A stretch of DNA of 64,000 bases from an uncultured Nitrososphaerales archaeon. Its GTDB lineage: Archaea; Thermoproteota; Nitrososphaeria; Nitrososphaerales; Nitrososphaeraceae. Under the pieces are notes generated by a model. It saw only the letters and a program-made list of their open reading frames with translations. It made no database searches and was not told the origin of the DNA. This document shows, one piece after another, positions 39,594-56,107 of the stretch (positions are counted from its first letter, which is position 1; each line of letters starts with the position of its first letter). The stretch lies in the NCBI GenBank assembly GCA_963695855.1, contig CAVOHZ010000008.1, forward strand, positions 256,001 through 320,000. The letters are read 5' to 3'. A program made the position numbers and the translations under genes.

Positions 39594-39646
39594 ATATAAT
39601 ACAGAAAACTAAAATTATCTAGATAGGAAGAATTTATAGTAGTTCT

Positions 39647-39785
39647 ATTAGTCTCTAAAGCAGATTCCGCATAAATAATATTTGTCGCACATAGTGGACC
39701 TGAGAAAAGTACGGGCCCGTCGAGAGTGGATCCTTCCATGTAGTAGGGTTCACCCAACTTGTATATAGCTTTTATCATTAGGAAC
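39647..39785 (+). repeat. att-like site: long left arm, core and arm B
   Basis: ATTAGTCTCTAAAGCAGAT...GAGAAAAGTACGGGCCCGTCGAGAGTGGATCCTTCCATGTAGTAGGGTTC. Confidence 0.88.
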
Positions 39786-39924
39786 TTAAGTAAAATAATT
39801 GTACAATAACAGACTAATCTTCATTTGGTTCGATAGAATCATCTATAAATTTCAATACAATTGTTTTTCTTTTCTATCAAATATGAAATACTGTTTTATA
39901 CAACATGTGAAATAAAGCATTTTA

Positions 39925-40110
39925 TTGGAACAGAGAAGAATAGGAATAATTTTTATGGTGTTAGGCGCTGTCATGTTGGCAATTCCGTTAATTATAACTA
40001 TAACAGAGAATTCCATTCGAATATTTGTTCCAATGATTGGTTTACTATTTTTATTGTTTGGTTTTCCAATAATATTAAGTAGTAAGAAAGGCAAGAATAT
40101 AGAAAATTAG
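39925..40110 (+). CDS. Small two-TM membrane protein
   Basis: 61 aa; two hydrophobic helices and a basic tail. Confidence 0.6.
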   Translation: MEQRRIGIIFMVLGAVMLAIPLIITITENSIRIFVPMIGLLFLLFGFPIILSSKKGKNIEN

Positions 40111-40152
40111 ATAAATACAAACAAAATCTTCTACCATGATGAATATACAGAA

Positions 40153-40220
40153 TAATATCGATAGCGGTGCGAAAATAAGAGTCTAATGTATGGTACTAAA
40201 GAAGATAATATTTAGGATTT
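40153..40220 (+). repeat. att-like arm A copy
   Basis: TAATATCGATAGCGGTGCGAAAATAAGAGTCTAATGTATGGTA. Confidence 0.85.
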
Positions 40221-40435
40221 ATTTAATCGGTATTTATTATGTTAACATCTTAATTTTATTTTATTTTGTTATTTTTCATATCTAAAAATGCAGAATTGGA
40301 TAATCTCAATTCTATTAGATTTTCCTCCAATTTTAAAAAAAGATTAGACTGTATGAATTTTTCTTACTAACTAATCATAGTAACAATTAGAAAACTTGTT
40401 ATAGGTTGTTATATCATTGTAGATGTTATATTCTT

Positions 40436-40828
40436 CTAATTCTTATATTCTAATTCGAATTTGAGAGTGCTGTCCTCATCTTTTGGTAATTCTTTAGTCT
40501 GACAGTATTTTGAATTATCATCTGATTCGTCTAAACATACTTCAACTTCATCACCTGGTTGGCCTGATATCGTTTCTTTTATTTTTTCTGTGTCATCTTT
40601 TAAGTCTACCGTTGTTTCTACCTTATCATCTTCTGTTTTGATAGAGAGATCTGCTGTAGTATCAACATTTTCTTCATTCTTGATGGATATATCAAGCTTA
40701 TAATCTTCTGCAAAAGATTTTTGAGAGATCAGGGAAGGAGAAACAAATAAAGTTGCTATCATTGATAAAGATATAATAAATGTCACGTTAATTCGTAGAC
40801 AATTTTTTTCCTTTATTATATTATCCAT
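40436..40828 (-). CDS. Secreted acidic beta-rich hypothetical protein
   Basis: Signal peptide ending SFA; paired Cys. Confidence 0.7.
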   Translation of the reverse strand: MDNIIKEKNCLRINVTFIISLSMIATLFVSPSLISQKSFAEDYKLDISIKNEENVDTTADLSIKTEDDKVETTVDLKDDTEKIKETISGQPGDEVEVCLDESDDNSKYCQTKELPKDEDSTLKFELEYKN

Positions 40829-40957
40829 ATTAGTTATTTATTATTATTATATAAAAATCTTTAAAGATATATATCTATAAAAAAAATCAGAATTAAATAT
40901 GGTATAATATTCTATTTAATTTATAATATTCTAAAATTTAGTTTATTGTGAAATGAG

Positions 40958-41682
40958 GGTCCTGTAAAGTTAAAATTATTTTACGCCCAATATTGAAAGG
41001 AATTCCTATCTAATCTTTGTATTATACAGATAAATGAATAACTTGATTCAATTATATACATGTAATATATTGCATTCTTCTCCTTCTGTTTTTCCAGATT
41101 GTTTACATGGATAATAATCATCAAAACATTCTGTCCTATCCTTGAGATACTGCATCACTCTTTCTATCAGACCTTTCTCTAAAGGTGAATGTAGATGATG
41201 TTTTAATCCAATTATATTGCATACTTCTGGATATCATGTTCCACGATCAGTATAAACTGGACGTCTTCCGTATTTCTCAACTAATGATCTAATAAATTTC
41301 TCAGCAACAAGCATATTTCTCTCTTGTAAAATATAGATTCCAAGTACAAATTTGTCAATTGGTTCAATAGAAATCCATAACCAAAAAGTAATGATTTCCT
41401 ATCTGAACAATAGTTTCCTCTATGATGAACGCTTATATTCTTTTTTTCTTGTAAATCTGCAATGAACCAAATCATTGAATCCAGTTTCATACAACAACAT
41501 AACTCCTTTTTTAATCGTTAAAAGGTTACAGTTCTTTTGACGTATTTCGTAGACTGAGATCAAATACAAATACAAAGAGTACATTACAGTGAATGCAGAT
41601 GTTCTATTTCTTTAAAATCTTAACAACATATTTTGTAGTAGAACATTCACAGATATAGTTCCTTCGTTAACTTAACAGAACC
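40958..41682 (-). pseudogene. IS6-family element, inactivated
   Basis: Both inverted repeats present; multiple frameshifts and stops; 3' two-thirds near-identical to 52745-53300. Confidence 0.85.
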
Positions 41683-41759
41683 ATCATTTACGTTCAACTA
41701 AATAGTCCAGATCAATAAAAACAGGATCACTGTAAATAAAATTAATGATAATGAGTGGC

Positions 41760-41860
41760 CCTAAATATTATTTCCTTATTACTATAACATTATACTGTTA
41801 TTTTTGCACCGCTATCGGTATTACTCCCGACTGGCCCGTACTTTTCTAGGGTTCACCTCA
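41760..41860 (-). repeat. att-like site (minus orientation): left arm, core and arm A
   Basis: TTATTTTTGCACCGCTATCGGTATTACTCCCGACTGGCCCGTACTTTTCTAGGGTTCACC. Confidence 0.9.
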
Positions 41861-42118
41861 TTTAGATATATTTAGTTAAAGGTAATTAGACGATTCATTA
41901 AGAGATCCGTTGAAATTCTTAAGTTACCATTTGAATTAATGGCTTATAAAATAAGGTTTAAACATATGTCTGTTGCTTTGGCCCAATCAAATAATAGGGT
42001 ATTATACCCCAAATTCTTCAAACATGAAAAATGCTTTTGCTTCCGTCTGATGTATAGAAGATTTTGTATTCTTTAACCACGTAGTGTTCTTAAATCTTTA
42101 ATTGAATTTTCAGGATAT

Positions 42119-42410
42119 TTGAGGATGCAGAAACAGAATCTATGTCTTGACAGGGCATATCATTCCAGAGAAGTAGAACAAGAAATTGTCAAGAGAGGAT
42201 ACATTCCACATATACGACATAGAAGAGAAGAAAAGAAACTGAACAAGAAATATCCTGCAGGAAGACGGGTACTTGAGAGAACAAACTCATGGCATAACAG
42301 ATACAGGAAATTGTTTACAAGATATGAAAAGAAGGTAGAAAACTATCTTGGTCTTGTGCAATTAGCAAATTGCATAATTGTTTATAGGATGATAATTTGG
42401 GTAGATTCTA
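42119..42410 (+). pseudogene. IS5-family orfB 3' fragment
   Basis: LCLDRAY...VLERTNSWHNRYRKLFTRYEKK; near-identical to 57834-58121. Confidence 0.85.
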
Positions 42411-42767
42411 ATTATAGTCAAAAACTTTCCCCTTGTTTATTATGATTTTTAATGTGGCATTGGTCAGAACAAAAATAATCATCACATATGTTACAATATA
42501 TTGGATAGTCTTGAATCTTCTTATAGCAGCTCGCACACGTGGTAGCCATATCCAAATTTTATTATCATACGATGTATTGTATTTCTTACTTACAAAGTTT
42601 TCTTTTTAGATTCAATATTATAGTTAAATAAATCTAGTCAATCGAAACTGGAAAAATGATTTATCTAAAATTGGTATATAGTTTTATTACAGAAGTAAAA
42701 TTTTACTTTAAATGAAAGGAAACGACTGACTAAAATACTGGAAGAGATCATCTACAAGATAATTGAT

Positions 42768-43418
42768 ATGAAAATTGGAATTATTGGAGCAGGTGATGTT
42801 GGCAGCACTCTAGGAAATAGGTGGATAAGAAAAGGAAATCAGATTTTCTTTGGAGTTAGAAACATCAATAGTTCTAAAGTTCAAAATATGTTAAAATCTC
42901 TAGGCTCCGATATTAAAGTTGGAACCATTAGCGAAGCAGCTTCGTTTGGAGATGTAGTAGTACTGTGCGTACCTTGGGAGGCAGCAAAAGAAACTATCGA
43001 AAATGCTGGAGATTTATCTGAAAAGATCTTGGTGGATCTTACTAATCCAATTAGTAAAGATCTAAAAAGTTTAGTAGTCGAACCTTCAACATCAGCTGCT
43101 GAAGAGATTGCAAGATGGTGTAAAGGTTCTAAGGTGGTGAAAGCATTTAATGCCATAGGTGCGAAGACTATGAATGACCTCCAATTTGATTCTTATAGAG
43201 CAGATACTTTTATTTGCGGAGACGATTTTAAAGCAAAATCCGTAGTAACGAAATTAGCAAAAGAAGTAGGTTTTGATGTTGTAGATGTTGGTCCTCTTAT
43301 TAATGCAAGACTGCTGGAACAATTGGCGTTATTGTGGATTGAATTGGTCATTAGACAGAAAATGGGACCAAACATTGCTTTTAAACTCTTGAAAAGAAGA
43401 CCTCGTTTGGAGATGTAG
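42768..43418 (+). CDS. F420-dependent NADP oxidoreductase family protein
   Basis: IGIIGAGDVG Rossmann motif, LVDLTNP, SAAEEIA, VVKAFN, CGDD, DVGPL. Confidence 0.9.
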   Translation: MKIGIIGAGDVGSTLGNRWIRKGNQIFFGVRNINSSKVQNMLKSLGSDIKVGTISEAASFGDVVVLCVPWEAAKETIENAGDLSEKILVDLTNPISKDLKSLVVEPSTSAAEEIARWCKGSKVVKAFNAIGAKTMNDLQFDSYRADTFICGDDFKAKSVVTKLAKEVGFDVVDVGPLINARLLEQLALLWIELVIRQKMGPNIAFKLLKRRPRLEM

Positions 43419-43861
43419 TAGTACTGTGCGTACCTTGGGAGGCAGCAAAAGAAACTATCGAAAATGCTGGAGATTTATCTGAAAAGATCTTGGTGGATCT
43501 TACTAATCCAATTAGTAAAGATCTAAAAAGTTTAGTAGTCGAACCTTCAACATCAGCTGCTGAAGAGATTGCAAGATGGTGTAAAGGTTCTAAGGTGGTG
43601 AAAGCATTTAATGCCATAGGTGCGAAGACTATGAATGACCTCCAATTTGATTCTTATAGAGCAGATACTTTTATTTGCGGAGACGATTTTAAAGCAAAAT
43701 CCGTAGTAACGAAATTAGCAAAAGAAGTAGGTTTTGATGTTGTAGATGTTGGTCCTCTTATTAATGCAAGACTGCTGGAACAATTGGCGTTATTGTGGAT
43801 TGAATTGGTCATTAGACAGAAAATGGGACCAAACATTGCTTTTAAACTCTTGAAAAGAAGA
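42942..43861 (+). repeat. Apparently exact 459-bp tandem duplication (42942-43400 and 43403-43861)
   Basis: Seen directly; the units are separated by CC. Confidence 0.92.
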
Positions 43862-43942
43862 GGTGGAATGTAATATTAATTGCATATTTTCTTGTTTTGG
43901 TCATTAATTTCAATATTATTAATCTTTGTAGATAGTTAACAG

Positions 43943-44672
43943 GGTGCTGTTAACTTAAGTTGGTTCGTCTCCTAATTTGAGGGATAGAGTTTCATTTCTC
44001 ATTCCTGAATTATAGAAATATACAAATAATTTCATGCAATTGTAAATATGTGATAGACCACAATTTTTCTTTATTGTTATTGTTCTTACAAGGATAGTAA
44101 TCATCAGAAGATTCAATTCTGTCCTTGAAATATTGCTTTACCCTTTCAATCAAACTCTTTTCTATGGTGAATGCAAGCGATGTTTCAAATGTAAGAAATG
44201 ACATGCTTGTGGATACCAAGTACCACCATCTGTATAAACTATATGTCTTCCATATTTGTCAACCAAAGAATTGATAAAATTATTTGCTACAATCATGTTT
44301 CTCTCTTCTGAAATATAGATTCCAAGTACAGATCTATGAATCGGTTCGATTACAATCCATAACAAAAAATGTTGACCACCAATCTGAATTATAGTTTCAT
44401 CTATGATGAATACAGATATTCTTCTGTGTTTGTTATATATTTGGCATGAACCAAATCGTTGAATCTACTCGCACACAGCAACATAACTTCTTTTTTTGTT
44501 CCTTAAATGGTTCCAATGCATTAGACGTATTTCGTAGACTGAGGCCAAGAAAGTATAGATAAAGAGAATACATTACCATAACTGTGGATGTTCTATTTCT
44601 AATGAATTTAATAAGCATAGATTAGAAATAATACATTAGCATCTAAATCTATTTCCTTAAATTAACAGGTAC
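43943..44672 (-). pseudogene. IS6-family element, frameshifted
   Basis: Three partial ORFs; inverted repeat GGTGCTGTTAACTTAAG at 43943. Confidence 0.85.
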
Positions 44673-44863
44673 AATTAGTGTGTAGCTTAATTCAACAATA
44701 ATAAATTTTATTCATAAACAAATTATGCTACAACAATATGAACTTGTTATATAACATTATCTTTACAGTAGTCGCCATCCTTTGCATACTAAATTTTTTT
44801 GATAGTAAATGTTCGACCAATACACGTTTTAACGATGAAAAGAGATTATATAATTTTCTCAAT

Positions 44864-45166
44864 TTATCTACTACATGTAGGAAGTAAATCTAAATGAAAT
44901 TTAGAATCCTCTTGATCGACTAATGTCCACCTTCCATACGTTATAGTATCTACTTTAAGACGAATAATCTTGCCTAATCTATCGGTAAAAATATTGACTA
45001 CGTCGTCTATTGTACTATTTCGGAGTTTCATTCTAATCTCTTCAATGGTAAATTCGATATCCGTTTCGTGCCTTTTAGGACTTGTATCATGATCATTCAT
45101 AATCACACTATGTACGTGTCCTTTTTTGTCTTTTTTGACGCATTTTATGTAAATGTTATGACTCAT
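44864..45166 (-). CDS. Hypothetical protein, DUF3892-like
   Basis: IYIKCVKKD N-terminus and LDLLPTC C-terminus resemble DUF3892. Confidence 0.5.
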   Translation of the reverse strand: MSHNIYIKCVKKDKKGHVHSVIMNDHDTSPKRHETDIEFTIEEIRMKLRNSTIDDVVNIFTDRLGKIIRLKVDTITYGRWTLVDQEDSKFHLDLLPTCSR

Positions 45167-45729
45167 GATATATACTCACCTCGCTACTAAATATATCATA
45201 TATCAAATAGAGAACGTGAAATTAAATAACCATTTCATATGTAAATGACTTTATATGTTATTTAATAATAATTCTAAATATCGTATCCTATTTTTCAACC
45301 TTCTTAGATACACAATATGAAATTACCTTCGGTTGTAATGCACTACATAAGAGGCAGAAATGCCACTCGATCCGAATGGCCCGTTTTTATCAGTGTTCGT
45401 ATACATGTGTATTTTTATAATATTTGTAATAATGAGTTACTCTCATAGTTTAAAAAATGTATGAGCAAATTGAAACCGCTGAAAGTAATTTAAATAAAAA
45501 TTTGATAGGAATTTTCAAAATATCTAGTCTCAAAAGATACAAGTGCAAATTATCAGAGAAACTGTATCAAAGTTATGTTGATGTTTGCAGATTTTTTACA
45601 GTCAAGAAAATAGGTAAGCAACTTAACAGTAGTAAATTCTTTTGATGATATTATAGCATTTTTGAATACAAGAAGAAAAAACAAAGATGAAGACTTCTAG
45701 TTCTATTATTGTCTAAAACTTATGAATCG

Positions 45730-45790
45730 CTACATTAGACTCTTATTTTCGCACCGCTATCGGTGTTACTGTCTCCTGCAGATATTTCAC
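45730..45790 (-). repeat. att-like arm A copy (minus)
   Basis: ATTAGACTCTTATTTTCGCACCGCTATCGGTGTTACT. Confidence 0.88.
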
Positions 45791-45911
45791 CTGTCTATAC
45801 TTTTAAAGTATCCAAAATCAATCTTATCAAGTTCTAATTATGACTATACTATTTTTAAAAATAATTTAATATTTTATATAGATAAACAAAAGAAGAATAT
45901 GACGATATTTA

Positions 45912-46607
45912 TCACATAACAATTAAGCGATTAACAATTCCATATACTTGCTGATTTCCAAAATGATTTCCTGTATCTTTATCATCTGGGTCAATAGTTA
46001 TTGTATTGCCTTTAGAAATGGTTATTGATACTTCTGCATGACTCCATCTAGTTATGCCATTTATTTTAATATCAGCGGTTCCATTTATTGATAAACTGTT
46101 ATTACTATTATTATCTGATGTAGATAGAATTATCACGCCTCCATCATCTTCATTTGCACTAAAGTTTGTTATTTGATGAATATGTCCCATTGAACCATCC
46201 ATAGGCGATGCCAAAAAACTTGCTTCAAAGTTTGTTACATTTCCATTATGGACATTTAAAATCCAGTCTCCAGTTAATATTACTTTGAATGCATTTGTTA
46301 TATTGAATTTATCTTCAGGAACTGTTATAACTAAAGAGCTTATTGTTCCTATAGCAGAAAAAGTTGTGCTCCTATTGCTATTACTACTACTATTTATTAC
46401 AGATTGAGTATTTAGATTCATTTTTTGATTTGTATCTTTATCTTTTTCCATTTGAGCAAATACAATAAATGATGATTCATAATCACCATAATTGTTTCTA
46501 ATCATGGCAAATGTAACTATAGATAATGATAGCACAAGGAATATTGTCGTTATAACTTTAGTTATAGTATTGAATGATGATGACGACAATACTCTTGTTG
46601 TAAACAT
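45912..46607 (-). CDS. Secreted thaumarchaeal hypothetical protein
   Basis: N-terminal TM; ILTGDW...DGSMGHIH...NHFGNQQVYG pattern. Confidence 0.75.
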   Translation of the reverse strand: MFTTRVLSSSSFNTITKVITTIFLVLSLSIVTFAMIRNNYGDYESSFIVFAQMEKDKDTNQKMNLNTQSVINSSSNSNRSTTFSAIGTISSLVITVPEDKFNITNAFKVILTGDWILNVHNGNVTNFEASFLASPMDGSMGHIHQITNFSANEDDGGVIILSTSDNNSNNSLSINGTADIKINGITRWSHAEVSITISKGNTITIDPDDKDTGNHFGNQQVYGIVNRLIVM

Positions 46608-46839
46608 TATTATCGTTATTCTTAATTCTATTATAAATATCTAAAATAATTAGCTTATTATATGGTAAACTAAAGATGTAAATTTCTATTATACTTCTTA
46701 CCGTCCTTTATATTAGACTTTACCTAAGAAAAGTTATTATCCTTCTTGTTTCCTTTCTAATAAAACATGTAATTTTTCATCATTCATTATCTTTTCAAAT
46801 AAAAAAGGAACATAGAAAACAAGAAGTGACTGATAACTG

Positions 46840-46945
46840 ATAATAAAATCTAAATACAAGATAGTAGTATCTCTACAATAAACTCTTATTTTTGCACCGC
46901 TATCGGTATTACTCCCAACGGGCCCAACGTTTCCTCGGGCACTAC
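46840..46945 (-). repeat. att-like site (minus): left arm, core, arm A and arm-B tail
   Basis: ACTCTTATTTTTGCACCGCTATCGGTATTACTCCCAACGGGCCCAACGTTTCCTCGGGCAC. Confidence 0.9.
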
Positions 46946-47058
46946 TTTGTTTTAGACCCCCTTGAGTTTCTATCTATCTATCTAATGTTGTTATAGTATA
47001 ATGAAATTGAAGATTATATCATTATACATATATAATTTTATTAGTCTAGTAATATGCC

Positions 47059-47262
47059 TTGCGAATGTTAGATAAAACCAATACAGAAAATATCCCTAAT
47101 ACGAGTTGGTGTCCTAGTTGCCTGGAAGAAGGAATTTCTGTTCAATTGGGTCCACGCCTTTACAAGAAAGAGGAATTAATTGATGGTGACCTACCACATG
47201 ATTCTTTTGATTGGCTAGAGTGCCGTGATTGCGGTCATATAGTCAAAGATTATTTTAATTAA
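47059..47262 (+). CDS. Small zinc-finger protein, copy 2
   Basis: Near-identical to 22756-22959. Confidence 0.75.
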   Translation: MRMLDKTNTENIPNTSWCPSCLEEGISVQLGPRLYKKEELIDGDLPHDSFDWLECRDCGHIVKDYFN

Positions 47263-47274
47263 TTAACTAATTTA

Positions 47275-47405
47275 TTACTCTAGTGATATTTTGTTACCGA
47301 ACATGGATAAGGTAACTGTTCAACTCCCGACTGGCCCGTAGTTTTCTACGGCCCACTATATACGATAAATATTATTTATGCATCATCTGCTTTAGAGACT
47401 AATAT
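47275..47405 (-). repeat. att-like site (minus): long left arm, core and arm C
   Basis: GTTCAACTCCCGACTGGCCCGTAGTTTTCTACGGCCCACTAT...TCTGCTTTAGAGACTAAT. Confidence 0.88.
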
Positions 47406-48091
47406 GTTTTTAGAGTTTAAAACCGATAAGATACACAAAATTCATATAATAAATGGAGATTTATAATACTGCAATATATTATTTTATAAAAACACTCCAC
47501 AATAAAAAAAATTATTATGAATAGGAGAAAGGATTTGTCTGCTAGAATTGACAATTAAAAAACATAAGCTAGTTGGTGTAGAAACTGTCTTTTCTATATC
47601 AAGAATATTTGGAAATATGTTACTCCCATTACACTCTTTTTATTCTAAGTTTACATCTGTCTAACATTTCATCTACAGTGTCAGTATCATTTTTGTTTTA
47701 TGCATTTCATTCAATTATTTTAACTAGTTTTATGCTAAATTTTTTTATCCGGTTAAAAATAAGGATAGCATCTGTTCCATCAAAAAAACAACAATAGGAA
47801 AGAAAGAAACAGATAATTCGATATGAAAAAGAAAAGGTAAGGATTACAAACTTTGATATTGTAATTACGAATGATGTAAATTTTGATTCAAGTTAGAGCA
47901 AATATGTTAAACGTTATTATAGTAATCATTAATTGTCAAGCTTCATACGATCAATATGTTATTTTAAGACTGATAAAAACACTTATGGATTATGAAACAA
48001 AAAATTTTGATTCTATAAATAATTCCAAAATTCTAATACATAGAGAATATCTTTTTACATAATTGATAAAAATAATTTGTTTGTTTGATAA

Positions 48092-49024
48092 TTATTGACA
48101 GAATTTTCTTAGTTCTTTAACAAATTCAATAGTTTTGTTTACATCATAATTTTTTTCTGCATTCATGGCAAGAATTACTCTATCTACGCCAGATCTTTCG
48201 AGCATAGATAAATCAGAACCAATTTCATCAATTGTTTCTCCAGTCATAGGAGACCGATTACTTTTTTTTTCAGAGCTACTTCCCACAAGATAAGGAAATG
48301 TTAAAATAGTTAGATCAAAATCCTTCCTTTCTCTTGTACTTTTTTTAATCGAATCATTGAACATTTTAATGGAATTTTCAAAATATTCAAATGATCCTGC
48401 TAAGGTTCCTATATAACCATCTCCATATTTTATCATACGCTCAAACGTCTTTGGCGAGAAACCCCCAAGAAAAATTTTAGGGTGAGGTTTTTGAATAGGC
48501 TTTGGATCAATTATTGACTTCGGAATTTTGTAAAAGTCTTCATTAAATTCTACAATGTCTTCTGTCCATACCTTTTTCATAGCTTTGAGAATTTCGTTTG
48601 CTCTTTCTCCTCTTTTCTCATAAGGAATATTAGCGGCAAGATACTCATCTTTTGACCATCCAATACCAAAACCACAGATTGTCCTACCTTCAGATAAAAT
48701 GTCTATTGTAGTAAACTCTTTAGCAAGTGTTATAGGATTATGAAAAATCATATCAATAATACAAGTTCCTAAATTTACCTTTGTTGTATTAGCCGCAATA
48801 AATGCTAATGTTGTTAATGGATCTAAAACATTCTTAAAAAATTCAGGCCATTCTCTTTTATCTGGAGTCCCGGGATACGGCTGTTGGGGATTGAGAGCAT
48901 ATAGCATTCTATCATATACCCAAAGTGATTCAAATCCTTCTTGTTCTGCAAGTTGAACAAATCTAATTAGATTTTCTTTAGTAGCATTTATGCCAAATTG
49001 AGGAACAGCTAATCCTACTTTCAT
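48092..49024 (-). CDS. LLM-class F420-dependent oxidoreductase
   Basis: AEQEGFESLWVYD, LDPLTTLAFIAANT, LSEGR...GIGW, PKPIQKPHP. Confidence 0.92.
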   Translation of the reverse strand: MKVGLAVPQFGINATKENLIRFVQLAEQEGFESLWVYDRMLYALNPQQPYPGTPDKREWPEFFKNVLDPLTTLAFIAANTTKVNLGTCIIDMIFHNPITLAKEFTTIDILSEGRTICGFGIGWSKDEYLAANIPYEKRGERANEILKAMKKVWTEDIVEFNEDFYKIPKSIIDPKPIQKPHPKIFLGGFSPKTFERMIKYGDGYIGTLAGSFEYFENSIKMFNDSIKKSTRERKDFDLTILTFPYLVGSSSEKKSNRSPMTGETIDEIGSDLSMLERSGVDRVILAMNAEKNYDVNKTIEFVKELRKFCQ

Positions 49025-49085
49025 ATCTATTATTAATTTTTATACTATAAAGACATAATGTAATCAATATTAGTATCTATTTTTC

Positions 49086-49526
49086 TTAATTAGAATATTT
49101 CCAACTTATAGTCTTTTGAATATCAATTATAATGCAAATGTCTCCAATTCCTACCATTTTTTTATACTGAAGATATTTTTCTGACAATAGTGAATGAGCT
49201 TTTTCTATCGTATCTCTATCTTTTAACCTATTTACTATTTTTGCTTTACCTTGGATTATTAAATAAGAAAGATTACTCCAGTCTTTATCGTCATATGTAT
49301 CAATTAGAAAAGAAATATTAGGATTTTTTTGTATATTTTTTACTCTTTTTAACTGGTTTGAATTTACCCTTTTAGGTTTGTCATCTATTGGAATGAAGAT
49401 ATTATTACCATCAAATGCAAATACCACGGGTATTAGGTAAGGTTGATTAATCTCAGGATCTACTGTTGCTAATCTGGCTATTTTTGAATTATTCAAATTT
49501 TCTAATGTTTTTCTGTTTTGCATCAA
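49086..49526 (-). CDS. PPOX-class (pyridoxamine 5'-phosphate oxidase-like) probable F420-dependent enzyme
   Basis: ARLATV, PYLIPVVFA, IDDKPK, LKRVKNIQKNP, DWSNL. Confidence 0.88.
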   Translation of the reverse strand: MMQNRKTLENLNNSKIARLATVDPEINQPYLIPVVFAFDGNNIFIPIDDKPKRVNSNQLKRVKNIQKNPNISFLIDTYDDKDWSNLSYLIIQGKAKIVNRLKDRDTIEKAHSLLSEKYLQYKKMVGIGDICIIIDIQKTISWKYSN

Positions 49527-49839
49527 TCTACTGCTATAGAAAAGATCTATAACTTAAATTTTTATACTTGTGATTTTTTATATGATAAAATCTTTTATCT
49601 ATAATTTAGATAGAACAACAAATAATATAAAAACATAATAGATGTTTTCCACTTGCTCCCATTAACTAAATGGAGTCCATACTTCCAAATAGGTATATTT
49701 AATATGTTACTAAAGTACTTTATATTATAAAGATTAAATGGGACCAGATAACTTAAATGGGTTCACTACTGTTGATCAGCTAGATTTGTGGGATTTGAAT
49801 GCTTCTATAAAGTGGGGATAGATATTTTCTAATATTAGT

Positions 49840-50889
49840 TGTTGTACTTACACAGATAGGTAACAGATTCACTTACCAACATGGGTAACACTTTTTATCT
49901 GCTTATTTGTTTTGATATTCTTACAACTATTTAATCTTCCTTTCATAAGAAACATTTCAGATGGTGTGTGACCATTGATTCCACCATGTTCTCTTGTTTC
50001 ATTGTATGCTTTGACAAACATGGAATATCTTCTCTTTCCTTCTTCTCTGTTGGAAATATTTTCTATTGCCAAAAATTCATTTTTGACTATCTTGTTATAT
50101 GCTTCAATTTTACCCTGTAGTTGTGGATATCTAGCAGGTATGGATTTATCTTTAATGTTGTTACGTTGTAGAAAACGTCTGAAGATTTTGGATGTAAGCT
50201 GTTTACCATTATCATGCATTATTTTGTGAGGTTTACCATTCTCTACTATGTAGTCTTCCAGTACCTGTAGTACATCTACACTTCGTTTTCTTTCAGACCA
50301 GTCACTTGTTACCTTTCTTGAACAGTCATCTTCACAACTGATAAAATAGTTCTTTTGAGTAGAATTCTCAAGGTAAAATGGTCCTAAAATGTCCATCTGT
50401 ACCATTTGATTGGGTTTTTCCATTGCAAATCTTTTGTATTTTCTATTTCTGATCTTGCATCTTAGTATGTTCAGTCCATGTCTTTTCAGTATCTTGTAGA
50501 TGGTTTTTGTACTGAAGGAGATATCATTCAGTCGTCTTAACCTGAACCTTATGCGATTGCAACCAAATCTTTTTGTTACACGTAAATCCAATATTTCCTG
50601 TTCTATCTCATTTGTTACTTTTCCAGGTTGTATATTATATGGTTTCCTACTTTTATCCCGTAAACCGTCTATTCCATTCTCAAGGTACCTGTTCTTCCAT
50701 TTGTAGTATGACTTTCTAGATGTATGATATCTATTACAGATATTAGTTACAGTATCTCCAGTCGACTCTTTCTCATGAATTAAATTAAATTTTGTTTGTA
50801 ATTCTATTTTTGTATACACTTCCTAGCAGATTAGGAAGTGTTACCTATCTCGGTAAATGAAATTGTAACCTATGTTGGTAAGTACAACA
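49840..50889 (-). mobile_element. Intact IS481-family element; transposase 49869-50819
   Basis: Ends TGTTGTACTTA...TAAGTACAACA; 6-bp target duplication ATTAGT at 49834-49839 and 50890-50895; HTH plus QMD/HDNG/GKIE integrase core. Confidence 0.93.
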
Positions 50890-51202
50890 ATTAGTTATTA
50901 TATTAATTCTAGTCTACTGAAGAGGATCAAATAAGAAAATGGATAAAGTGAATGAAGATGTTAATGGTGACTTAGCAGATAAACTAATTATGTTATTAGA
51001 AGACTACTAACAATACTAAGAACAAACAATATATTTTATCATATTGTCAAAGATTATAATGAAGTTTAAAAAATAATGTATGTTATTTGTACACAAAAGT
51101 ACTATTTTGCAGCAATGCTAGGACAGTAGGATCTATCCTACCAGCATCGGACATGGTGAAGTAATGAGTTGACGTGTCTGCCTATGCTCCATAGGGTTTA
51201 TT

Positions 51203-51237
51203 CTCTTATTATTGCACCGCTATCGGTGTTACTCCCG
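51203..51237 (-). repeat. att-like arm A plus partial core (minus)
   Basis: CTCTTATTATTGCACCGCTATCGGTGTTACTCCCG. Confidence 0.85.
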
Positions 51238-52115
51238 GAATAATAACAAAAACCGACATAGTCAGAGCTATAAAAGACATGAAGGAATGATCAAAGTCAT
51301 TTATAAATTTCCAATATCTCTAAATGATACATGAGCTCGTTTTCTTATCTGATTTAATTGCTTTTTCCTACTTCTGTAATTTAATAACTAGATCCCTTTT
51401 TTGAAATTTATTTAATTGCATATGTGTATTACCATCTAACTACAGTATAGTTAGTTTTGAATGGAGCCCTGTTTTCACCTTGTTCTAACTTGATTTCACA
51501 TATTGATACGATGTTTTCAATTAATACCATCTGATTTCTATTGTCTTTTGTAGTTTCAAGTCATTCGTGAAAAACGTGTAAAATGCTACTGTATTTCAAA
51601 AAAATTTTAAAAAAGTTCGTATTTGAACTAGTTTTCATCTCGTTGAAAGCACTATCATATATCAATTAGCATGAATATGCTGGCTCAATTCTATCGCCTG
51701 CTTGCACATTTTACATAAAGATAGTATAGCTAGTGCTAATAACTTGATATATCATATTTGTTGCCACAAAAGTATCAAAGACAGGATTTGAAAAAAATAT
51801 ACGACTCTGAACATGATACTAATGTAAAGTAAAATTCGGATAGAGAAATTTTCAAATATCTTGTAGCAAAAGACTCGAGTGCAAGTTATCAAAGAAACTG
51901 TACCAAAATTCTGGTAATGCTTGCAGAAATTACTAAGAAAGATAATGCTTATGCCTATCTACATAAAAACATTGATTATTTTTATGGTATAGAAATTTAT
52001 TATATGCATTCAAACTATTATTGATCTAGTATGGTAGTTATAAGACATCTATCTTAATTTAAAATTTTACATTTTGATATTATGCTTATAATAGTAGGAG
52101 AACTAAAATAGATAT

Positions 52116-52511
52116 ATGTCTATACTTTCAAAAACTCTTAGACTACGAATTCCTTCTAATATTATTTACCGCGCTTTAAAGGATACAAGATTAGAAAATC
52201 TTTTTCCTGAATTTTTTATAGGGTTAGAAAGAAAAGTTATAACTGATAAAATAAATAAGGAAGTTAGTTATAATACAATAACTCAAGGAAAACAGATTGA
52301 AATTATTGAAACATTCAAATTTAAAATTTCTAACAATAATGAAACAGTTGTAGAATATATTACAGAGATAAAAACAATAGAAGAGAACAATATAATATTA
52401 GAATCAATAGTACAGACACATGTAGCTAATATTTTATATTCACTTTTGATGCTTGAGACAGGATATATTAATGGAGTATTGGAAAAGAAAAAAATAGATA
52501 ATTCAATATGA
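52116..52511 (+). CDS. Hypothetical protein (possibly SRPBCC/START-like)
   Basis: 131-aa ORF with normal composition; fold guess is inference. Confidence 0.55.
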   Translation: MSILSKTLRLRIPSNIIYRALKDTRLENLFPEFFIGLERKVITDKINKEVSYNTITQGKQIEIIETFKFKISNNNETVVEYITEIKTIEENNIILESIVQTHVANILYSLLMLETGYINGVLEKKKIDNSI

Positions 52512-52569
52512 AAAAGGAAAGGTAAGGATTACAAACTTTGATATTGCCATTATGAATGATGTAAATTTT

Positions 52570-53300
52570 GGGCTGTGTTAATTTAAGCAAATAGTTTTAG
52601 CTGTGAACATCCTATCTCTAATAAATGCTTGTTAAATTCATTAGAAATAGAACATCCACAGTTATGGTAAATTATTCTCTTTATCTATTCTTTCTTGGTC
52701 TCAGTCTACGTAATACTTCCAAAACGTTAGTCATATTTAGAGATGAAAAAAGGAGTTATGTTGTTGTATGAAACTGGATTCAATGATTTGGTTCATTGCA
52801 GATTTACAAGAAAAAAAGAATATAAGCGTTCATCATAGAGGAAACTATTGTTCAGATAGGAAATCATTACTTTTTGGTTATGGATTTCTATTGAACCAAT
52901 TGACAAATTTGTGCTTGGAATCTATATTTTACAAGAGAGAAATATGCATGTTGCTGAGAAATTTATTAGATCATTAGTTGAGAAATACGGAAGACGTCCA
53001 GTTTATACTGATCGTGGAACATGATATCCAGAAGTATGCAATATAATTGGATTAAAACATCATCTACATTCACCTTTAGAGGAAAGTCTGATAGAAAGAG
53101 TGATGCAGTATTTCAAGGATAGGACAGAATGTTTTGATGATTATTATCCATGTAAACAATCTGGAAAAACAGAAGGAGAAGAATGCAATATATTACATGT
53201 ATATAATTGAATCAAGTTATTCATTTATCTGTATAATACAAAGATTAGATAGGAATTCCTTTCAATATTGGGCGTAAAATAATTTTAACTTTACAGGACC
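52570..53300 (+). pseudogene. IS6-family element, inactivated
   Basis: Inverted repeats at both ends; shares lesions with 40958-41682. Confidence 0.85.
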
Positions 53301-53505
53301 GTTTTTAGGTAGGTCTAACAGGTTCTTCTGCAGGATGTGACTCCTACTTTATAAAAGTCTAAAAAACCTCACTGATTTGTGGTCCTAACCCTTGTCTCTG
53401 GAAAACAATAGTCAACAACATAATAACGCGGTTGAAACTGAGTTTTAAGCAATGAGTCCTCCTTTAAATATTATTCTACCAGTTTGATTTGAAGGACAGA
53501 CATGT

Positions 53506-53925
53506 TTAGGATTGGGTTCTTAACTGTTCGGTCAATGAAATCATATCTACCAGATTCCAACGCTCTATGCATTTTGTATCATGAAAAGAAAATACTGTCA
53601 TCCCATTGACTTTGAATTGTTTATCGGTTGGCTTAAGATCCATAAATTCACCTTTGTGTGTGCCAGTTAGGTTGTATCTACATGCAACCTTATTTCCTTC
53701 GATAATGATATCATCAAACATAATTCCTATATCAGGAAATGCTTTCCATAGGAGATAAATGAACTGTTTAAAACCTTCCTTGTTCGCCAGAAGATTTGGA
53801 GGGAAACCATGAATTATCAAGGAGTCATCATAAAAATCAAAATAAGATGATTCTCTTTTCTGCGGATTGTTAAATGTGTCTGCCAATTTTCTCACAACTT
53901 CTCTTAAAGGCTCAAGTGATGACAT
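53506..53925 (-). CDS. SnoaL-like ester cyclase
   Basis: AFPDI...IEGNKVACR...GTHKGEFMDLKPT...IERW. Confidence 0.88.
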   Translation of the reverse strand: MSSLEPLREVVRKLADTFNNPQKRESSYFDFYDDSLIIHGFPPNLLANKEGFKQFIYLLWKAFPDIGIMFDDIIIEGNKVACRYNLTGTHKGEFMDLKPTDKQFKVNGMTVFSFHDTKCIERWNLVDMISLTEQLRTQS

Positions 53926-54072
53926 TATTGAGATATTTATAGCCTTTTTTATAACTTTTTCTTTACCTTCTTTATCTGATATATTGATGACATTGCACTT
54001 TACGCTTTATTATTATGATCGTCAGATTTTTGTACTCGATATTCGTTTGTTAGAAATATAGAGAAGATTATA

Positions 54073-55089
54073 ATGAGCAACATGAGTAAGAAATGCTACC
54101 AACTGGCTCCTGATTTGACAATATGTCGAATACTCAACGGCATGTGGCAGGTCGCAGGTGGACATGGATATGTCAATCCTGAATTAGCAATTGCAGGTAT
54201 GGTGAGATACCATGATGCTGGCTTTACTACTTGGGACCTCGCAGATATTTATGGCCCGGCAGAGGATTTTATTGGGGAGTTCAGGCGTAGATTATTAACG
54301 CTAAAAGGAAAAGAAGAACTCGGCAGAATTCAGTCATTAACAAAATGGGTACCAGAGCCAGGGAAAATTACACGTTCTATTGTTAATGAAAATATAGAAA
54401 GATCACTTCACAGAATGAATGTTAGCTCGTTGGATTTACTTCAATTCCATTGGTGGGATTATAATAATCCGTATTACATGGATGCTCTAAATTACCTTTC
54501 AGACCTTACGAATGAAGGACGAATTAAGCATTTAGGTCTTACAAATTTTGATACTGACCGTATGCAGATCATGACAGATTCGGGTTTACAAATTGTATCG
54601 AACCAGGTTCAATATTCGATCATAGATAGAAGGCCAGAAGTAAAGATGATACCATTTTGTATGGAGCATAACATCAGCCTTCTTGGTTATGGATGCATTT
54701 GTGGAGGGCTTTTATCAGAACGTTATGTAGGAAGAATAGAACCATCTAATGTTGAGTTAGATACATTAAGCTTACGAAAATACAAGAAGATGATAGATGC
54801 ATGGGGCGGATGGAATTTGTTCCAAGACCTTTTATTGACTTTGAAGAGAATTGCGAAAAAGTACAATGTAAGTATCGCAAATGTAGCAACCAGCTATATT
54901 CTTGCCAAGCCTGTAGTAGCAGGAGTTATTATCGGCGTTAGACTTGGAATAGTTGATCACATAAATGATAACACTCAGGTATTCAACTTTAATTTGGACA
55001 AGTCAGATCGTGATGCTATAGATGCAGTATGTGCAAAGGCAAATAACTTGTTTGAGATAATTGGAGATTGTGGTGATGAGTATAGATGA
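54073..55089 (+). CDS. Aldo/keto reductase
   Basis: WDLADIYGPAE, LDLLQFHWW, GLTNF, SNQVQYS. Confidence 0.93.
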   Translation: MSNMSKKCYQLAPDLTICRILNGMWQVAGGHGYVNPELAIAGMVRYHDAGFTTWDLADIYGPAEDFIGEFRRRLLTLKGKEELGRIQSLTKWVPEPGKITRSIVNENIERSLHRMNVSSLDLLQFHWWDYNNPYYMDALNYLSDLTNEGRIKHLGLTNFDTDRMQIMTDSGLQIVSNQVQYSIIDRRPEVKMIPFCMEHNISLLGYGCICGGLLSERYVGRIEPSNVELDTLSLRKYKKMIDAWGGWNLFQDLLLTLKRIAKKYNVSIANVATSYILAKPVVAGVIIGVRLGIVDHINDNTQVFNFNLDKSDRDAIDAVCAKANNLFEIIGDCGDEYR

Positions 55090-55745
55090 TCTGTCTTTTT
55101 GTCTCTTCTACCTATAATGCATGTAGGAAACTGGCATATGGTGATATGTACACATAATCATGAGTTTCATGGCATCTAAACGATTTCGATACTGATCAAT
55201 TCAATTACCAGTGCTATTGTAGAAAATAGTTCGACACTTAATAACATTATTTTATTATATACGGTATGATTTAAGTTAGTCAGATAGCAAAAATGGCAGT
55301 TCAAAACTAGTATTTAACGAATATTTATTCACTCTCGTTAGGGAGGTAATTCTGCAAACCTATATTTGTACTTCATTATAGGAATTTGTTGATGTTGGTA
55401 AATGAATCGTAGCTCTCGATAAATGTCCAAAATAAAAAATAAATTACCATATCAAATTTTTCGGCGCCGAAAAAATAATATTAAAAATATGAAAAAATTA
55501 CTTTCATACAATAATCAGCAGGATGGCTGGACTGGCTCAGATAGATGCCACGCTGTTGTCAGTTACCCATTTTTGGTGTAATGATATGATTACTTCGTAT
55601 TTGTATTATTTATGATATTTGGTAATAAAAAATACTTTTTCATCATGTTATAATTTATCACGTAGAATCAATCGATATTCGTAGACTTATTACTCTTGTT
55701 TATTCGGATATACATGATATGAACTTGAGTTTTCTTAGTACGGTT

Positions 55746-55850
55746 CTAATACCATCTACATGTCAGTCCAATAAAAGGCTGTGTTGCAATTAGAGTTGCT
55801 CCTACAATCATTCCTATGATGCACATGTTGAATTTTGTTAGCTCAAATAT
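55746..55850 (-). CDS. Putative small TM peptide, paralog of 9897-10001 (ATA start, or internal ATG at 55826)
   Basis: IFELTKFNMCIIGMIVGATLIATQPFIGLTCRWY. Confidence 0.42.
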   Translation of the reverse strand: MFELTKFNMCIIGMIVGATLIATQPFIGLTCRWY

Positions 55851-56093
55851 GTTCCTTTATTCTTCTTAGAATAGAAAAAGATTTTCCACGTCTGAAAACA
55901 GAGATGGCTGTAGAGAAGAAACATAATTCTGAACTTGAAAAAGAAGACCAATAGAGTTATAAGGTACTATTTTTTGTAACTTAAGATGAAGGTTCATCTG
56001 TATATTCAGCAAGTTTCTGTGAACTAAAATATTCTAAATACTACGGTTCTATTATATTGTATTAACAATATTATTTGTATGGATATTCCCTTC

Positions 56094-56107
56094 GTCGGGA
56101 GTTGACC
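56094..56107 (+). repeat. Partial att-like core with arm-C-type junction
   Basis: GTCGGGAGTTGACC. Confidence 0.5.

Follow-up and report, generated by a model that had tools for sequence, protein, structure and literature searches.

The window, that is, the whole stretch of 64,000 nucleotides analysed here, contains a short block of DNA bounded by two direct copies of a GC-rich core sequence. This mini-cassette carries a single small gene, and a second copy of it lies inverted elsewhere in the window. The features of the two copies are as follows.

46912..46926, plus strand: left core of the mini-cassette, CTCCCAACGGGCCCA, 2 mismatches; arm A (46894-46912) precedes it
46927..47323, plus strand: body of the mini-cassette between the direct cores, whose starts are 412 bp apart
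47059..47262, plus strand: open reading frame (ORF) of 67 aa with two CxxC pairs (zinc ribbon), the cargo
47293..47323, plus strand: arm C, an inverted repeat GTTACC(12 nt)GGTAAC, then TGTTCAA
47318..47338, plus strand: attR-type junction of arm C, core and R1-type flank, the right boundary of the mini-cassette
22699..23100, minus strand: second, inverted copy of the mini-cassette, with its ORF at 22756-22959 and its arm A-side core, 3 mismatches, at 23086-23100
22684..22704, minus strand: twin of the junction at 47318, again arm C, core and R1-type flank; its reverse complement matches the 3′ end of tRNA-Lys(UUU) at 19 of 21 bases

The arms 22746-23029 and 46989-47272 are 94% complementary. 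Between their cores the two copies are 94-97% alike, and the ORF is open in both, a change of frame having been compensated. The arm A sequences next to them differ from each other at -30 to -18. Arm C occurs in this genome only here and in the twin, and has no match in 24 other genomes of the genus.

The boundary at 47318-47338 reads GTTCAACTCCCGACTGGCCCG on the plus strand. Twenty of its 21 bases are those of the 3′ end of tRNA-Lys(UUU), from G53 to the discriminator G73, and the sole mismatch is a T for G at tRNA position 67. Exactly one tRNA ending in GGTTCAACTCCCGACGGGCCCG is present in the 3.55-Mb genome, at C8:2734-2821 (ARAGORN, introns allowed). This gene is intron-bearing, is the sole one of its kind in the genome, lies 253 kb upstream of the window and scores 56.8 bits with the Rfam tRNA model (cut-off 29). 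Because its anticodon loop contains CUUUUA followed by a 15-nt insert, it can be identified as tRNA-Lys(UUU) with discriminator G. ARAGORN itself reports the gene as 'Stop(tta)', the intron having been misplaced by the program.

The initial annotation, made from the window alone, had read the repeat as a tRNA 3′ end and proposed a search for a host tRNA ending in this way. The gene at C8:2734-2821 is such a tRNA, and compared with it the parse was correct throughout: G53, T-loop TTCAACT, T-stem 3′ strand CCCGA, acceptor 3′ strand CGGGCCC, discriminator G. From the discriminator the annotation had guessed arginine or lysine, and it is lysine. Its statement that the window holds no complete tRNA also agrees with ARAGORN (0 genes) and with Rfam (0 matches at gathering score); around 46700-47500 Rfam gives only sub-threshold snoRNA and sRNA noise.

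Other copies of the core can be found throughout the window. The copy at 35612-35626 (minus strand) is shorter, its sharing being limited to ACTCCCGACGGGCCCG. With up to 3 mismatches, the consensus 21-mer matches the window 4 times (22684, 35612, 39712 and 47318), versus 0 matches in 100 dinucleotide shuffles. Of the 15-nt core CTCCCGACGGGCCCG, with up to 2 mismatches, the window contains 10 copies and the whole genome 29, the tRNA among them. The motif is thus more widespread than first annotated.

Regardless of position, these copies share one pattern. When the 28 copies outside the tRNA gene are compared with it, identity is 0.86 or more at A58-G73, falls to 0.14-0.36 at positions 55-57 and is high again at 52-54. 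The copies might instead be left over from duplicated tRNA-Lys genes, as 3′ pseudogene fragments with no relation to site-specific recombination. Such fragments would also be restricted to the 3′ part of the tRNA, and the GGT at positions 52-54 is widely kept. However, none of the copies contains tRNA sequence before position 52, where a few recurrent non-tRNA arms are found instead. Neither Rfam nor ARAGORN detects a tRNA-like fold at any copy in the window, and copies adjoin integrase genes in this and other genomes. An origin as pseudogene fragments is hardly credible.

The sequences joined to the core belong to a small recurring set, with arms A, B and C on its left and R1, R2 and R3 on its right. 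The remaining cores of the window, the integrase gene and the arm A copies are the following.

35612..35626, minus strand: perfect 15-nt core, attP-like, in the order arm A, core, R2, then integrase
34261..35544, minus strand: Int1, a divergent candidate tyrosine recombinase of 427 aa with a C-terminal 4-Cys zinc ribbon
33335..33349, minus strand: core with 2 mismatches, in the order arm A, CTTCCGACGGGCTCG, degenerate R3
38152..38166, minus strand: core with 2 mismatches, in the order arm B, core, R1
39712..39726, minus strand: core with 1 mismatch, in the order arm B, core, R1
15836..15850, minus strand: core with 2 mismatches, in the order arm B, core, R1
41824..41838, plus strand: core with 1 mismatch, in the order arm A, core, R1, then an IS5-like copy
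58401..58415, minus strand: core with 1 mismatch, in the order arm A, core, R1; inverted partner of 41824
2543..58433, both strands: span with 14 copies of the arm A 19-mer
2543, 12497, 12732, 17005, 19627, 23101, 33349, 35626, 40152 and 58415, minus strand: arm A 19-mer
41806, 45751, 46894 and 51214, plus strand: arm A 19-mer

Some of these cores bracket recognizable units. Those at 33335 and 35612 enclose 2.3 kb with the integrase and an insertion sequence (IS) fragment, and the direct repeats at 38152 and 39712 enclose a one-gene cassette of 1560 bp with an ORF of 430 aa (38301-39593). This ORF was considered as a relative of the integrase and rejected, the two being unrelated by comparison. 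It belongs to no Pfam or NCBIfam family, and its Atlas matches are unnamed Nitrososphaerota clusters alone. The cores at 41824 and 58401 are adjoined by 520-nt IS arms that are 98% complementary.

Arm A is a conserved block of 42 nt with 50 copies genome-wide. It contains a hairpin, CACCG-CTAT-CGGTG, and has a sharp 3′ edge at ...GGTATTAC. The tRNA core follows in 21 of 50 copies; the other 29 have fewer than 11 of 14 core bases. The core-less copies were compared with the 3′ ends of other tRNAs called by ARAGORN, but the match is no better than with random 20-mers, and this candidate was rejected. A simple att model leaves these copies, about half of the total, unexplained. R1 is less suited to such counts, as the short R1 pattern has 120 genome matches, most of them without a core, and is too degenerate for genome-wide counting.

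The edge and the hairpin of arm A would also suit the end of a transposon- or MITE-like repeat that inserts beside a GC-rich target, the match to the tRNA being incidental. The other sequence after 29 copies, with a few flanks recurring 2-5 times, points the same way. Yet no transposase consistently adjoins arm A, a terminal inverted partner at constant spacing is lacking, and the tRNA core follows the remaining 21 copies. Moreover, arms B and C, as well as arm D in relatives, carry the same core, and the layout of arm A, core, R2 and integrase recurs in two relatives (L080 and L083). A transposon end is therefore quite improbable.

Site-specific recombination between attP and attB sites is expected to produce four types of junction, and all four are present.

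C8:2807: attL, tRNA followed by R2 and the integrase
C8:43680: attR, in the order arm A, core, R1
35612 of the window, C8:177064, and relatives L080 and L083: attP-like, in the order arm A, core, R2
relatives L012 and L017: attB-like, tRNA followed by R1

The attL and attR junctions are direct core repeats flanking 41 kb, just as such repeats flank 412 bp at 46912/47324 and 1560 bp at 38152/39712. The 41-kb island beside the tRNA contains Int1, type I restriction-modification (R-M) genes, an ApeA-HEPN gene, Fic and IS elements, together with six arm A copies in one orientation.

The initial annotation had expected the flank T(A)CTTTTCTAG downstream of the host tRNA. This does not hold for the genome's own tRNA, which is followed by TTATGTATTCGGG (arm R2, then the integrase). 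The flank does stand directly after the tRNA in L012 and L017, and it closes the island at C8:43680. Because the DNA downstream of the tRNA in those two relatives has no match to the DNA after C8:43694, and synteny thus does not extend beyond R1, R1 is only presumably the native flank. The flanks upstream of the tRNA in relatives match C8:47-2733 in one case only (L006).

The integrase is linked to the same sites. An intact copy of Int1 at C8:2892-4172, 80% identical to the window copy (tblastn), starts 71 nt after tRNA-Lys, and the window copy starts 68 nt after the core at 35612. A third copy, 61% identical, starts at C10:1147482, where a tRNA-Arg(UCG) ends at 1147426. Among related loci, 60 of 80 have a match starting near the N-terminus and were taken for a survey; 26 of the 60 are preceded, at no more than 400 nt, by a tRNA for Lys, Arg, Pro or Ala, and the same core is present at 9. 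Fragments of Int1 occur at C8:124585-127337, C8:205459 and C8:548245. A second integrase, Int2, is unrelated to Int1 and is found behind arm R3 in relatives; the same core is used by two unrelated integrase families.

Int1 would be a distant member of the tyrosine recombinases. Its best NCBIfam matches, XerA (E = 4e-4, 20 bits versus a cut-off of 220) and XerC (E = 2.8e-3), fall below curated cut-offs, as does Pfam Phage_integrase (PF00589), which matches 9 of 13 aligned family members with a best E of 3.1e-4. The 13 sequences share R179, K207, Y295-x-x-R298, R319-W320 and Y330 as invariant positions, and these are the candidate catalytic residues. For the structural model of the catalytic domain, which is poor (mean pLDDT 65.7), the top Foldseek matches are all tyrosine recombinases, namely XerA, IntI, Brujita Int, Cre and lambda Int, with a best E of 5e-3 and none reaching 1e-3. 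Against PDB sequences, a profile of the 13 integrases retrieves only the ribosomal L37e zinc ribbon (E = 0.55), and the single Int1 sequence retrieves nothing useful.

Taken from sequence comparison, the most convincing explanation is that the 21-mer is an att core, a copy of the tRNA-Lys(UUU) 3′ end that elements carry and recombine with, and that the arrays grew by Int1-driven accretion. This is very probably correct. The identities, the junction combinations, the linkage to integrase genes and the distribution in relatives are observations, from which we infer the strand exchange, its position and the order of events described below.

In the proposed mechanism, Int1 would exchange strands inside the shared 16 nt, ACTCCCGACGGGCCCG, which correspond to tRNA positions 58-73. 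One partner would be the element site, consisting of left arm, core and right arm, and the other the tRNA gene. The Int1 gene is located 68-71 nt after the core, behind R2, and Int2 is behind R3 in relatives. Integration would rebuild the tRNA at one end and leave a junction of element arm, core and R1 at the far end. Since core plus R1 resembles the tRNA 3′ end with its downstream flank, later elements could enter at such junctions and not solely at the tRNA. Over many rounds of insertion, arrays of short gene blocks would form; most blocks would lack an integrase and could move, if at all, only in trans.

The site at 47318 would then be the right-hand junction of a 412-bp block inserted beside an arm A-core junction, and the inverted copy at 22684-23100 would be the same cassette. 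IS elements are the probable reason why parts of the array are now inverted and scattered. The array of the window was not simply extended outward from the tRNA gene, since that gene is 253 kb away.

The position of the exchange can be narrowed only in part. It had been placed in or next to the T-loop, and the last three T-loop bases are indeed possible. The T-stem 3′ strand and the acceptor strand are equally within A58-G73, and the identity profile of the 28 copies confines the crossover to this interval with no finer placement. The related claim that arms A and B replace the sequence from inside the T-loop is refined for arm B, which keeps most of the loop (GATTCCAC here and GATTCAAC in relatives).

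The same cores could also be read as nothing but scars. In that case they would be relics of ancient integration, no recombination would take place now, and the layout would result from IS-mediated and homologous rearrangement. Nine of the 10 window cores have 1-2 mismatches, which fit relics as well as active sites. In addition, the window contains IS fragments of several families and inverted IS copies that are 98-99% identical, an IS fragment adjoins the window integrase, and the R3 arms found here are truncated, with no neighbouring integrase.

Other observations speak against scars alone. Two Int1 genes still encode the full 427 aa, with every candidate catalytic residue in place, and the genome has 10 cores outside the tRNA that match the 15-mer without a mismatch. 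Over 22 copies of arm A with a core, identity to the consensus is 0.909 in the core and 0.882 in arm A, so the two are about equally conserved. That mutations are concentrated in the core when compared with arm A was considered and rejected genome-wide; it holds for the twin mini-cassette only. Finally, the mini-cassette occupies two array positions, and the similarity of its copies falls off at the cores. Scars alone are somewhat less likely than not.

Metagenomes were consulted for the mini-cassette. Logan contigs from four soil runs of four studies were compared with 45000-49500, the best run containing 0.49 of the sampled words, and one contig (X5, 449 nt) spans 46910-47348. No joint was reported at any core over this interval, but contigs are unable to show rare circles or empty sites, and the result is thus uninformative on activity. 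An exact search for the arm C/core junction gave 7 metagenome matches. These were rejected as chance, because the contigs are unrelated, have 41-65% G+C and show no similar flanks.

Multiple cores in one genome, and likewise the 42-nt arm A, are for the most part a feature of this genus, whose relatives are named Ca. Nitrosocosmicus. With at most 1 mismatch, the core occurs 17 times here, 5-9 times in each of 5 sampled genomes of the genus, and 0-5 times (mostly once) in 55 genomes of other genera. In the same comparison, arm A has 42 copies here and 9-18 in the 5 genomes of the genus, and is found in 1 of the 55 others. Arrays in one orientation exist in G012:C16 and G075:C58.

The arrays resemble those of sedentary chromosomal integrons, which have species-specific attC repeats (Vibrio cholerae repeats) and a tyrosine recombinase beside the primary site. 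Here, too, short gene blocks in arrays each end in a repeat that is conserved and specific to the lineage, and a candidate tyrosine recombinase lies by the primary site. An integron-like platform would take arm A plus the 16-nt core as the cassette site, analogous to attC, and the tRNA-Lys 3′ end as the primary site, analogous to attI. One or both integrase families would shuffle integrase-less cassettes of one to three genes in trans, as a standing means of gene capture by the genus. Single genes would be packaged, duplicated, inverted and swapped between arrays that make up several per cent of the genome.

Several findings are in line with this reading. Arm A stands at most block boundaries, is nearly confined to the genus and divides 2543..58433 into small blocks (0.24-10 kb) that mostly lack an integrase, while two unrelated integrase families share the core. 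The block with the 430-aa ORF has differing arm combinations at its ends in different genomes. The gene module at 46971-47290, with the zinc-ribbon gene, is present without any core or arm in two relatives (G075 and G014), and the cassette adds to it a 44-nt R1-type start and the 33-nt arm C; this would be one packaged gene.

In contrast to integrons, however, the ORFs between sites lie on both strands and are not co-oriented, the site is derived from a tRNA, and the recombinase is not of the IntI type, scoring far below the cut-off of the XerA/integron-integrase model and matching no Pfam family at gathering score. An attC-like hairpin is also missing. Single-strand folds were calculated for both strands of the sites at 41824 and 47324 and for the minus strand of 39712 and 35612. 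Only the minus strand of 47324 beats shuffles (z = -3.6, a short hairpin of core and R1); the other five range from -0.1 to -1.8. Many blocks, furthermore, are IS elements or their fragments, and about half of the arm A copies have no core. An integron-like platform is rather unlikely.

The accretion favoured here belongs to a type of feature that is already known, namely att sites at tRNA 3′ ends with tandem accretion. In the model of ICESt1 and ICESt3, integrase-less blocks flanked by att sites (CIMEs) lie in tandem with an element that has an integrase, and can in principle be moved in trans. The window has integrase-less att-flanked blocks of the same kind. CIMEs differ in being bacterial and linked to conjugation, and no conjugation genes were seen in the window.

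Archaeal tyrosine integrases that target tRNA genes provide the closest parallel. In thaumarchaea, according to the portions of the surveys consulted, att sites have a median length of 17 bp, 57% of integrations are in tRNA genes, and one site can be re-used in tandem (PMC6563490; PMC8371274). As in those systems, insofar as these sources describe them, the core here is a tRNA 3′ end and the integrase lies by attL, the identity being 16-22 nt (PMC6563490; PMC8371274). What sets this genome apart is an integrase family below Pfam and NCBIfam cut-offs with a C-terminal zinc ribbon, and 29 core copies with a few recurrent arms and two unrelated integrase families. The name Nitrosocosmicus does not occur in the available text of the 2019 survey (Krupovic et al. 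2019, PMC6563490).

Tycheposons of Prochlorococcus, in the available part of their description, integrate at a few tRNA genes, and newcomers push older elements inward. Their islands contain scattered partial tRNAs and broken integrases, and carry adaptive or defensive cargo (bioRxiv 10.1101/2020.12.28.424599). To that extent, the tRNA-anchored island with its scattered partial tRNAs and Int1 fragments is tycheposon-like. The bacterial elements differ in usually carrying replication modules plus an integrase, and no boundary arm of about 42 nt is mentioned in that part of the source (bioRxiv 10.1101/2020.12.28.424599). 'Suicidal' integrases of the SSV type are archaeal and tRNA-targeting as well, but their att site is part of the integrase gene itself, so that integration splits the gene (PMC7253208), whereas the core here is 68-71 nt upstream of an intact 427-aa gene.

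The analysis traces the GC-rich core repeats of an AT-rich genome to one source, the 3′ end of tRNA-Lys(UUU), and, under the accretion model, to one enzyme family. The repeat family thereby becomes a map of integration junctions, which can be used to delimit imported DNA in this genus. Its many core copies separate small blocks of imported genes; the scar type is familiar, and here it is found in a little-studied group of soil archaea. The finding may also account for the breaks in relatives' draft assemblies at tRNA-Lys(UUU); contigs of four relatives end at the 3′ end of this tRNA. If the cassette reading is true, the arrays would correspond, in an archaeal nitrifier of agricultural importance, to integrons and tycheposons. 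If the integron-like reading is true, they would represent a gene-capture system of soil ammonia-oxidising archaea, with two integrase families acting in trans.

On sequence grounds, the 21-mer at 47318-47338 is an att core that derives from tRNA-Lys(UUU), which bears out the initial annotation's reading of it as the end of a tRNA gene. Cores derived from tRNAs are an already known kind of feature, of which this is a new instance. Three copies can be read directly from the sequence:

47318-47338, plus strand: the 21-mer, GTTCAACTCCCGACTGGCCCG
22684-22704, minus strand: its reverse-complement twin
35612-35626, minus strand: a shorter copy of the core

The consensus 21-mer has 4 matches in the window at up to 3 mismatches, versus 0 in 100 dinucleotide shuffles.

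The 64-kb window holds no complete tRNA, as the initial annotation had said (ARAGORN 0; Rfam 0 at gathering score), and the tRNA that it predicted to carry this 3' end exists as one gene elsewhere. With introns allowed, ARAGORN finds 36 tRNA genes in the genome (3.55 Mb, 11 contigs, about 31% G+C), exactly one of which, C8:2734-2821 on the contig whose positions 256001-320000 are the window, ends in ...GGTTCAACTCCCGACGGGCCCG. ARAGORN outputs it as 'Stop(tta)' with the intron misplaced. Because the Rfam tRNA model gives it 56.8 bits, where the cut-off is 29, and aligns an anticodon loop CUUUUA with a 15-nt insert after it, it is read as tRNA-Lys(UUU) with an intron at the canonical position and discriminator G. 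The guess of Arg or Lys from the discriminator thus comes down to Lys. Beginning at G53, the gene also bears out the proposed parse into T-loop, T-stem 3' strand, acceptor 3' strand and discriminator. The 47318 copy departs from it only at position 67, where T replaces G. The 253 kb between window and gene fits the att reading less neatly.

Contig C8 begins only 2.7 kb before tRNA-Lys, and an IS630-like copy (C8:1159-2323) sits inside the conserved DNA upstream of the gene, relative to relative G014 (locus L006). A tRNA-like T-arm and acceptor end at C10:756899-756913 (...CTCGGGTTCAAATCCCGACGGCCCCG), where ARAGORN calls no gene, could represent a tRNA whose intron is unusual, or else a further att relic.

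At up to 2 mismatches, the genome has 29 copies of the 15-nt core CTCCCGACGGGCCCG, the tRNA counted, and the window has 10, of which 9 are mismatched. Recurrent arms adjoin it:

Arm A, left: ...TTAGACTCTTATTTTTGCACCGCTATCGGTATTA
Arm B, left: GTAGTAGAACCCTACTACATGGAAGATTCCA
Arm C, left, only at 47324 and 22684: GTTACCGAACATGGATAAGGTAACTGTTCAA
R1, right: TACTTTTCTAGGGTTCACC
R2, right, directly downstream of tRNA-Lys: TTATGTATTCGGGTTCATATAC
R3, right, approximately an inverted arm A: TGCTGATATAAGTGCTAAAAT

R1 and R2 share a loose pattern downstream of the core, T..T.T..T.GGG..CA. When the 28 non-tRNA copies are compared with the tRNA, identity is at least 0.86 at positions 58-73, falls to 0.14-0.36 at 55-57 and is 0.79-0.89 at 52-54. 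By this profile, any exchange joining the arms would have to lie inside A58-G73. Recombination between attP (the element site) and attB (the unoccupied host site) should yield four junction types, and each of them is present:

attL, C8:2807: tRNA, then R2 and the integrase gene
attR, C8:43680: arm A, core, R1
attP-like, window 35612 and C8:177064: arm A, core, R2
attB-like, loci L012 and L017 in relatives: tRNA, then R1

The island between attL and attR measures 41 kb. Genes there include the integrase Int1, a Rad51-like gene, ApeA-HEPN, a type I restriction-modification operon, a TBP paralogue and Fic, alongside IS elements and six arm A copies in a single orientation.

Int1 is encoded by a 427-aa ORF that starts 71 nt past the end of tRNA-Lys, behind R2. 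An uninterrupted copy in the window (34261-35544, minus strand) is 80% identical to it. Upstream of this copy R2 recurs, together with a perfect core at 35612, and arm A replaces the tRNA body. Family matches are weak: no Pfam match to Int1 at E = 0.01, a weak NCBIfam match to XerA (E = 4e-4; 20 bits, where the cut-off is 220) and a weak one to XerC. Among 13 aligned homologues, 9 match PF00589 weakly (best E = 3.1e-4) and a few match SAM-like N-terminal domains. All 13 keep R179, K207, Y295-x-x-R298, R319-W320, Y330 and four C-terminal cysteines. In the AlphaFold model (mean pLDDT 65.7) the N-terminal domain alone is good. The best Foldseek matches are all tyrosine recombinases, led by XerA 5hxy (E = 5e-3, none reaching 1e-3) and followed by IntI, Brujita Int, Cre and lambda Int. 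Int1 is taken as a putative, divergent tyrosine recombinase.

Residues 360-427 (window 34261-34465, minus strand) form a C-terminal four-cysteine zinc ribbon (C364, C367, C378 and C381, invariant in 13 sequences) and then a long predicted helix; no structural match in the Foldseek list aligns there.

Across Nitrososphaeraceae the Int1 family has 80 loci, in relatives titled Ca. Nitrosocosmicus, Nitrososphaera and Ca. Nitrosopolaris. With 20 truncated loci excluded, 60 remain, in which the match begins close to the N-terminus. Of these, 26 have a tRNA upstream at no more than 400 nt (Lys-UUU, Lys-CUU, Arg, Pro or Ala), and 9 have the same core. To the left of that core is tRNA-Lys in four loci (L044, L048, L073 and L082), arm A in two (L080 and L083) and other sequence in three (L021, L022 and L067).

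A second integrase-like ORF, Int2, is found behind R3 in six relatives' loci, starting 51 nt past the tRNA-Lys core. By BLASTP it is unrelated to Int1. Int2 is full length (429 aa) in L002:163-1449 (minus strand), and interrupted or cut by contig ends in L006, L009, L011, L016 and L018. None of its homologues in this genome (C5:25889, C8:107545, C8:155828, C3:367959) adjoins R3.

Within the window, the arm A 19-mer has 14 copies; the strongly conserved block of the arm is 42 nt, ACATTAGACTCTTATTTTTGCACCGCTATCGGTATTACTCCC. Arms and cores delimit blocks of 0.24-10 kb with genes on both strands: adenylate cyclases, a cation-efflux gene, ABM and SnoaL genes, grpE-dnaK-dnaJ, a metallophosphatase, oxidoreductases, a rhodanese and many IS copies. 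Sites point to the minus strand from 2543 to 40152, to the plus strand from 41806 to 51214 and to the minus strand again at 58401. Inverted IS copies 98-99% identical lie at 40958/52736 and 41879/57842, and IS-mediated inversion is a plausible source of the mixed orientation. The pairs are IS6-like (40958-41522 / 52736-53300, 565 nt, 99%) and IS5-like (41879-42398 / 57842-58361, 520 nt, 98%), and might flip the 11-15 kb between them.

The grpE-dnaK-dnaJ operon (25513-29109, minus strand) lies inside the array between arm A sites 23101 and 33349, with IS6-like and IS630-like copies on its flanks. Adenylate/guanylate cyclase-domain genes at 10289-11401 and 17609-18547 (both minus strand) occupy separate arm A-delimited blocks, and one is fused with a response-regulator receiver. 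Two identical 300-nt direct copies (family D4; 42942-43241 and 43403-43702, 461 nt apart) overlap an F420-dependent NADP oxidoreductase ORF (42768-43418) and the next ORF; this pair looks like a very recent tandem duplication.

The 47318 copy bounds a 412-bp cassette:

46912-46926: core, arm A side
47059-47262: 67-aa ORF with two CxxC pairs
47324-47338: direct repeat of the core, 412 bp away, arm C side

A second, inverted copy lies at 22684-23100. The segments 22746-23029 and 46989-47272 are 94% complementary, and the ORF stays open through a compensated frame change. Likeness drops just beyond both cores, with differences between the arm A neighbours at -30 to -18. The gene module (46971-47290) recurs at 89-93% identity in relatives G075 and G014, where no core lies within 1.5 kb, and arms are absent beside its paralogues on contig C10. 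Since the module is free of arms there, the cassette is best described as this module with two additions, a 44-nt R1-type start and the 33-nt arm C. A contig of 449 nt from soil-metagenome run X5 spans 46910-47348, core to core. Just past the ORF's stop codon, a motif of about 37 nt, TAATTAATTAACTAATTTATTACTCTAGTGATATTTT (47254-47290; also 22728-22760), recurs in many places in most of 25 genus genomes searched (85-100% over 22-48 nt); possible identities are a common terminator, promoter or small repeat.

Some points fit poorly, among them the mismatches in 9 of the 10 window cores. After 29 of 50 arm A copies the sequence has fewer than 11 of 14 core bases. A tRNA 3' end following these core-less copies was considered and rejected, its matches being no better than those of random 20-mers. 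Single-strand folds of the core sites contain no attC-like structure; a short core/R1 hairpin at 47324 alone stands out (z = -3.6). An integron-like reading of the arm A-delimited arrays is considered unlikely.

At up to 1 mismatch the core occurs 17 times in this genome, 5-9 times in each of 5 sampled genus genomes and 0-5 times, mostly once, in 55 genomes of other genera. Arm A, at up to 2 mismatches, occurs 42 times here, 9-18 times in each of the 5 and in 1 of the 55; the unpublished G063, among the 55, gives a single core match and none for arm A, and no conclusion depends on it. Arrays in G012:C16 and G075:C58 keep a single orientation and contain no Int1 homologue. tRNA-Lys lies at a contig end in 4 of 15 copies examined, as would follow from repetition of the core in those genomes.

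A 1560-bp block with a 430-aa ORF (38301-39593, plus strand) recurs in 18 of 24 other genus genomes. Nine inspected loci have arm A upstream in 6, arm A or B downstream in 5 and a full core in 2. The ORF, conserved in the genus at 72-94% DNA identity and usually between arm A or arm B sites, is also found at C6:191207-192592. It has no Pfam or NCBIfam family, and Atlas gives unnamed Nitrososphaerota clusters alone.

PMC6563490 gives a median of 17 bp for thaumarchaeal att sites, places 57% of integrations in tRNA genes and describes arrays as arising by repeated use of one site; 'Nitrosocosmicus' has 0 occurrences in its text. The tycheposon preprint (bioRxiv 10.1101/2020.12.28.424599) describes islands where new elements push older ones inward, leaving behind partial tRNAs and broken integrases. 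A limited search of the Nitrosocosmicus literature on integrases and tRNAs, and on mobile elements and genomic islands, yielded no account of such arrays. Judged from the genomes compared, what may turn out to be new are the arm A-delimited arrays, which are nearly restricted to the genus and would be served by two integrase families.
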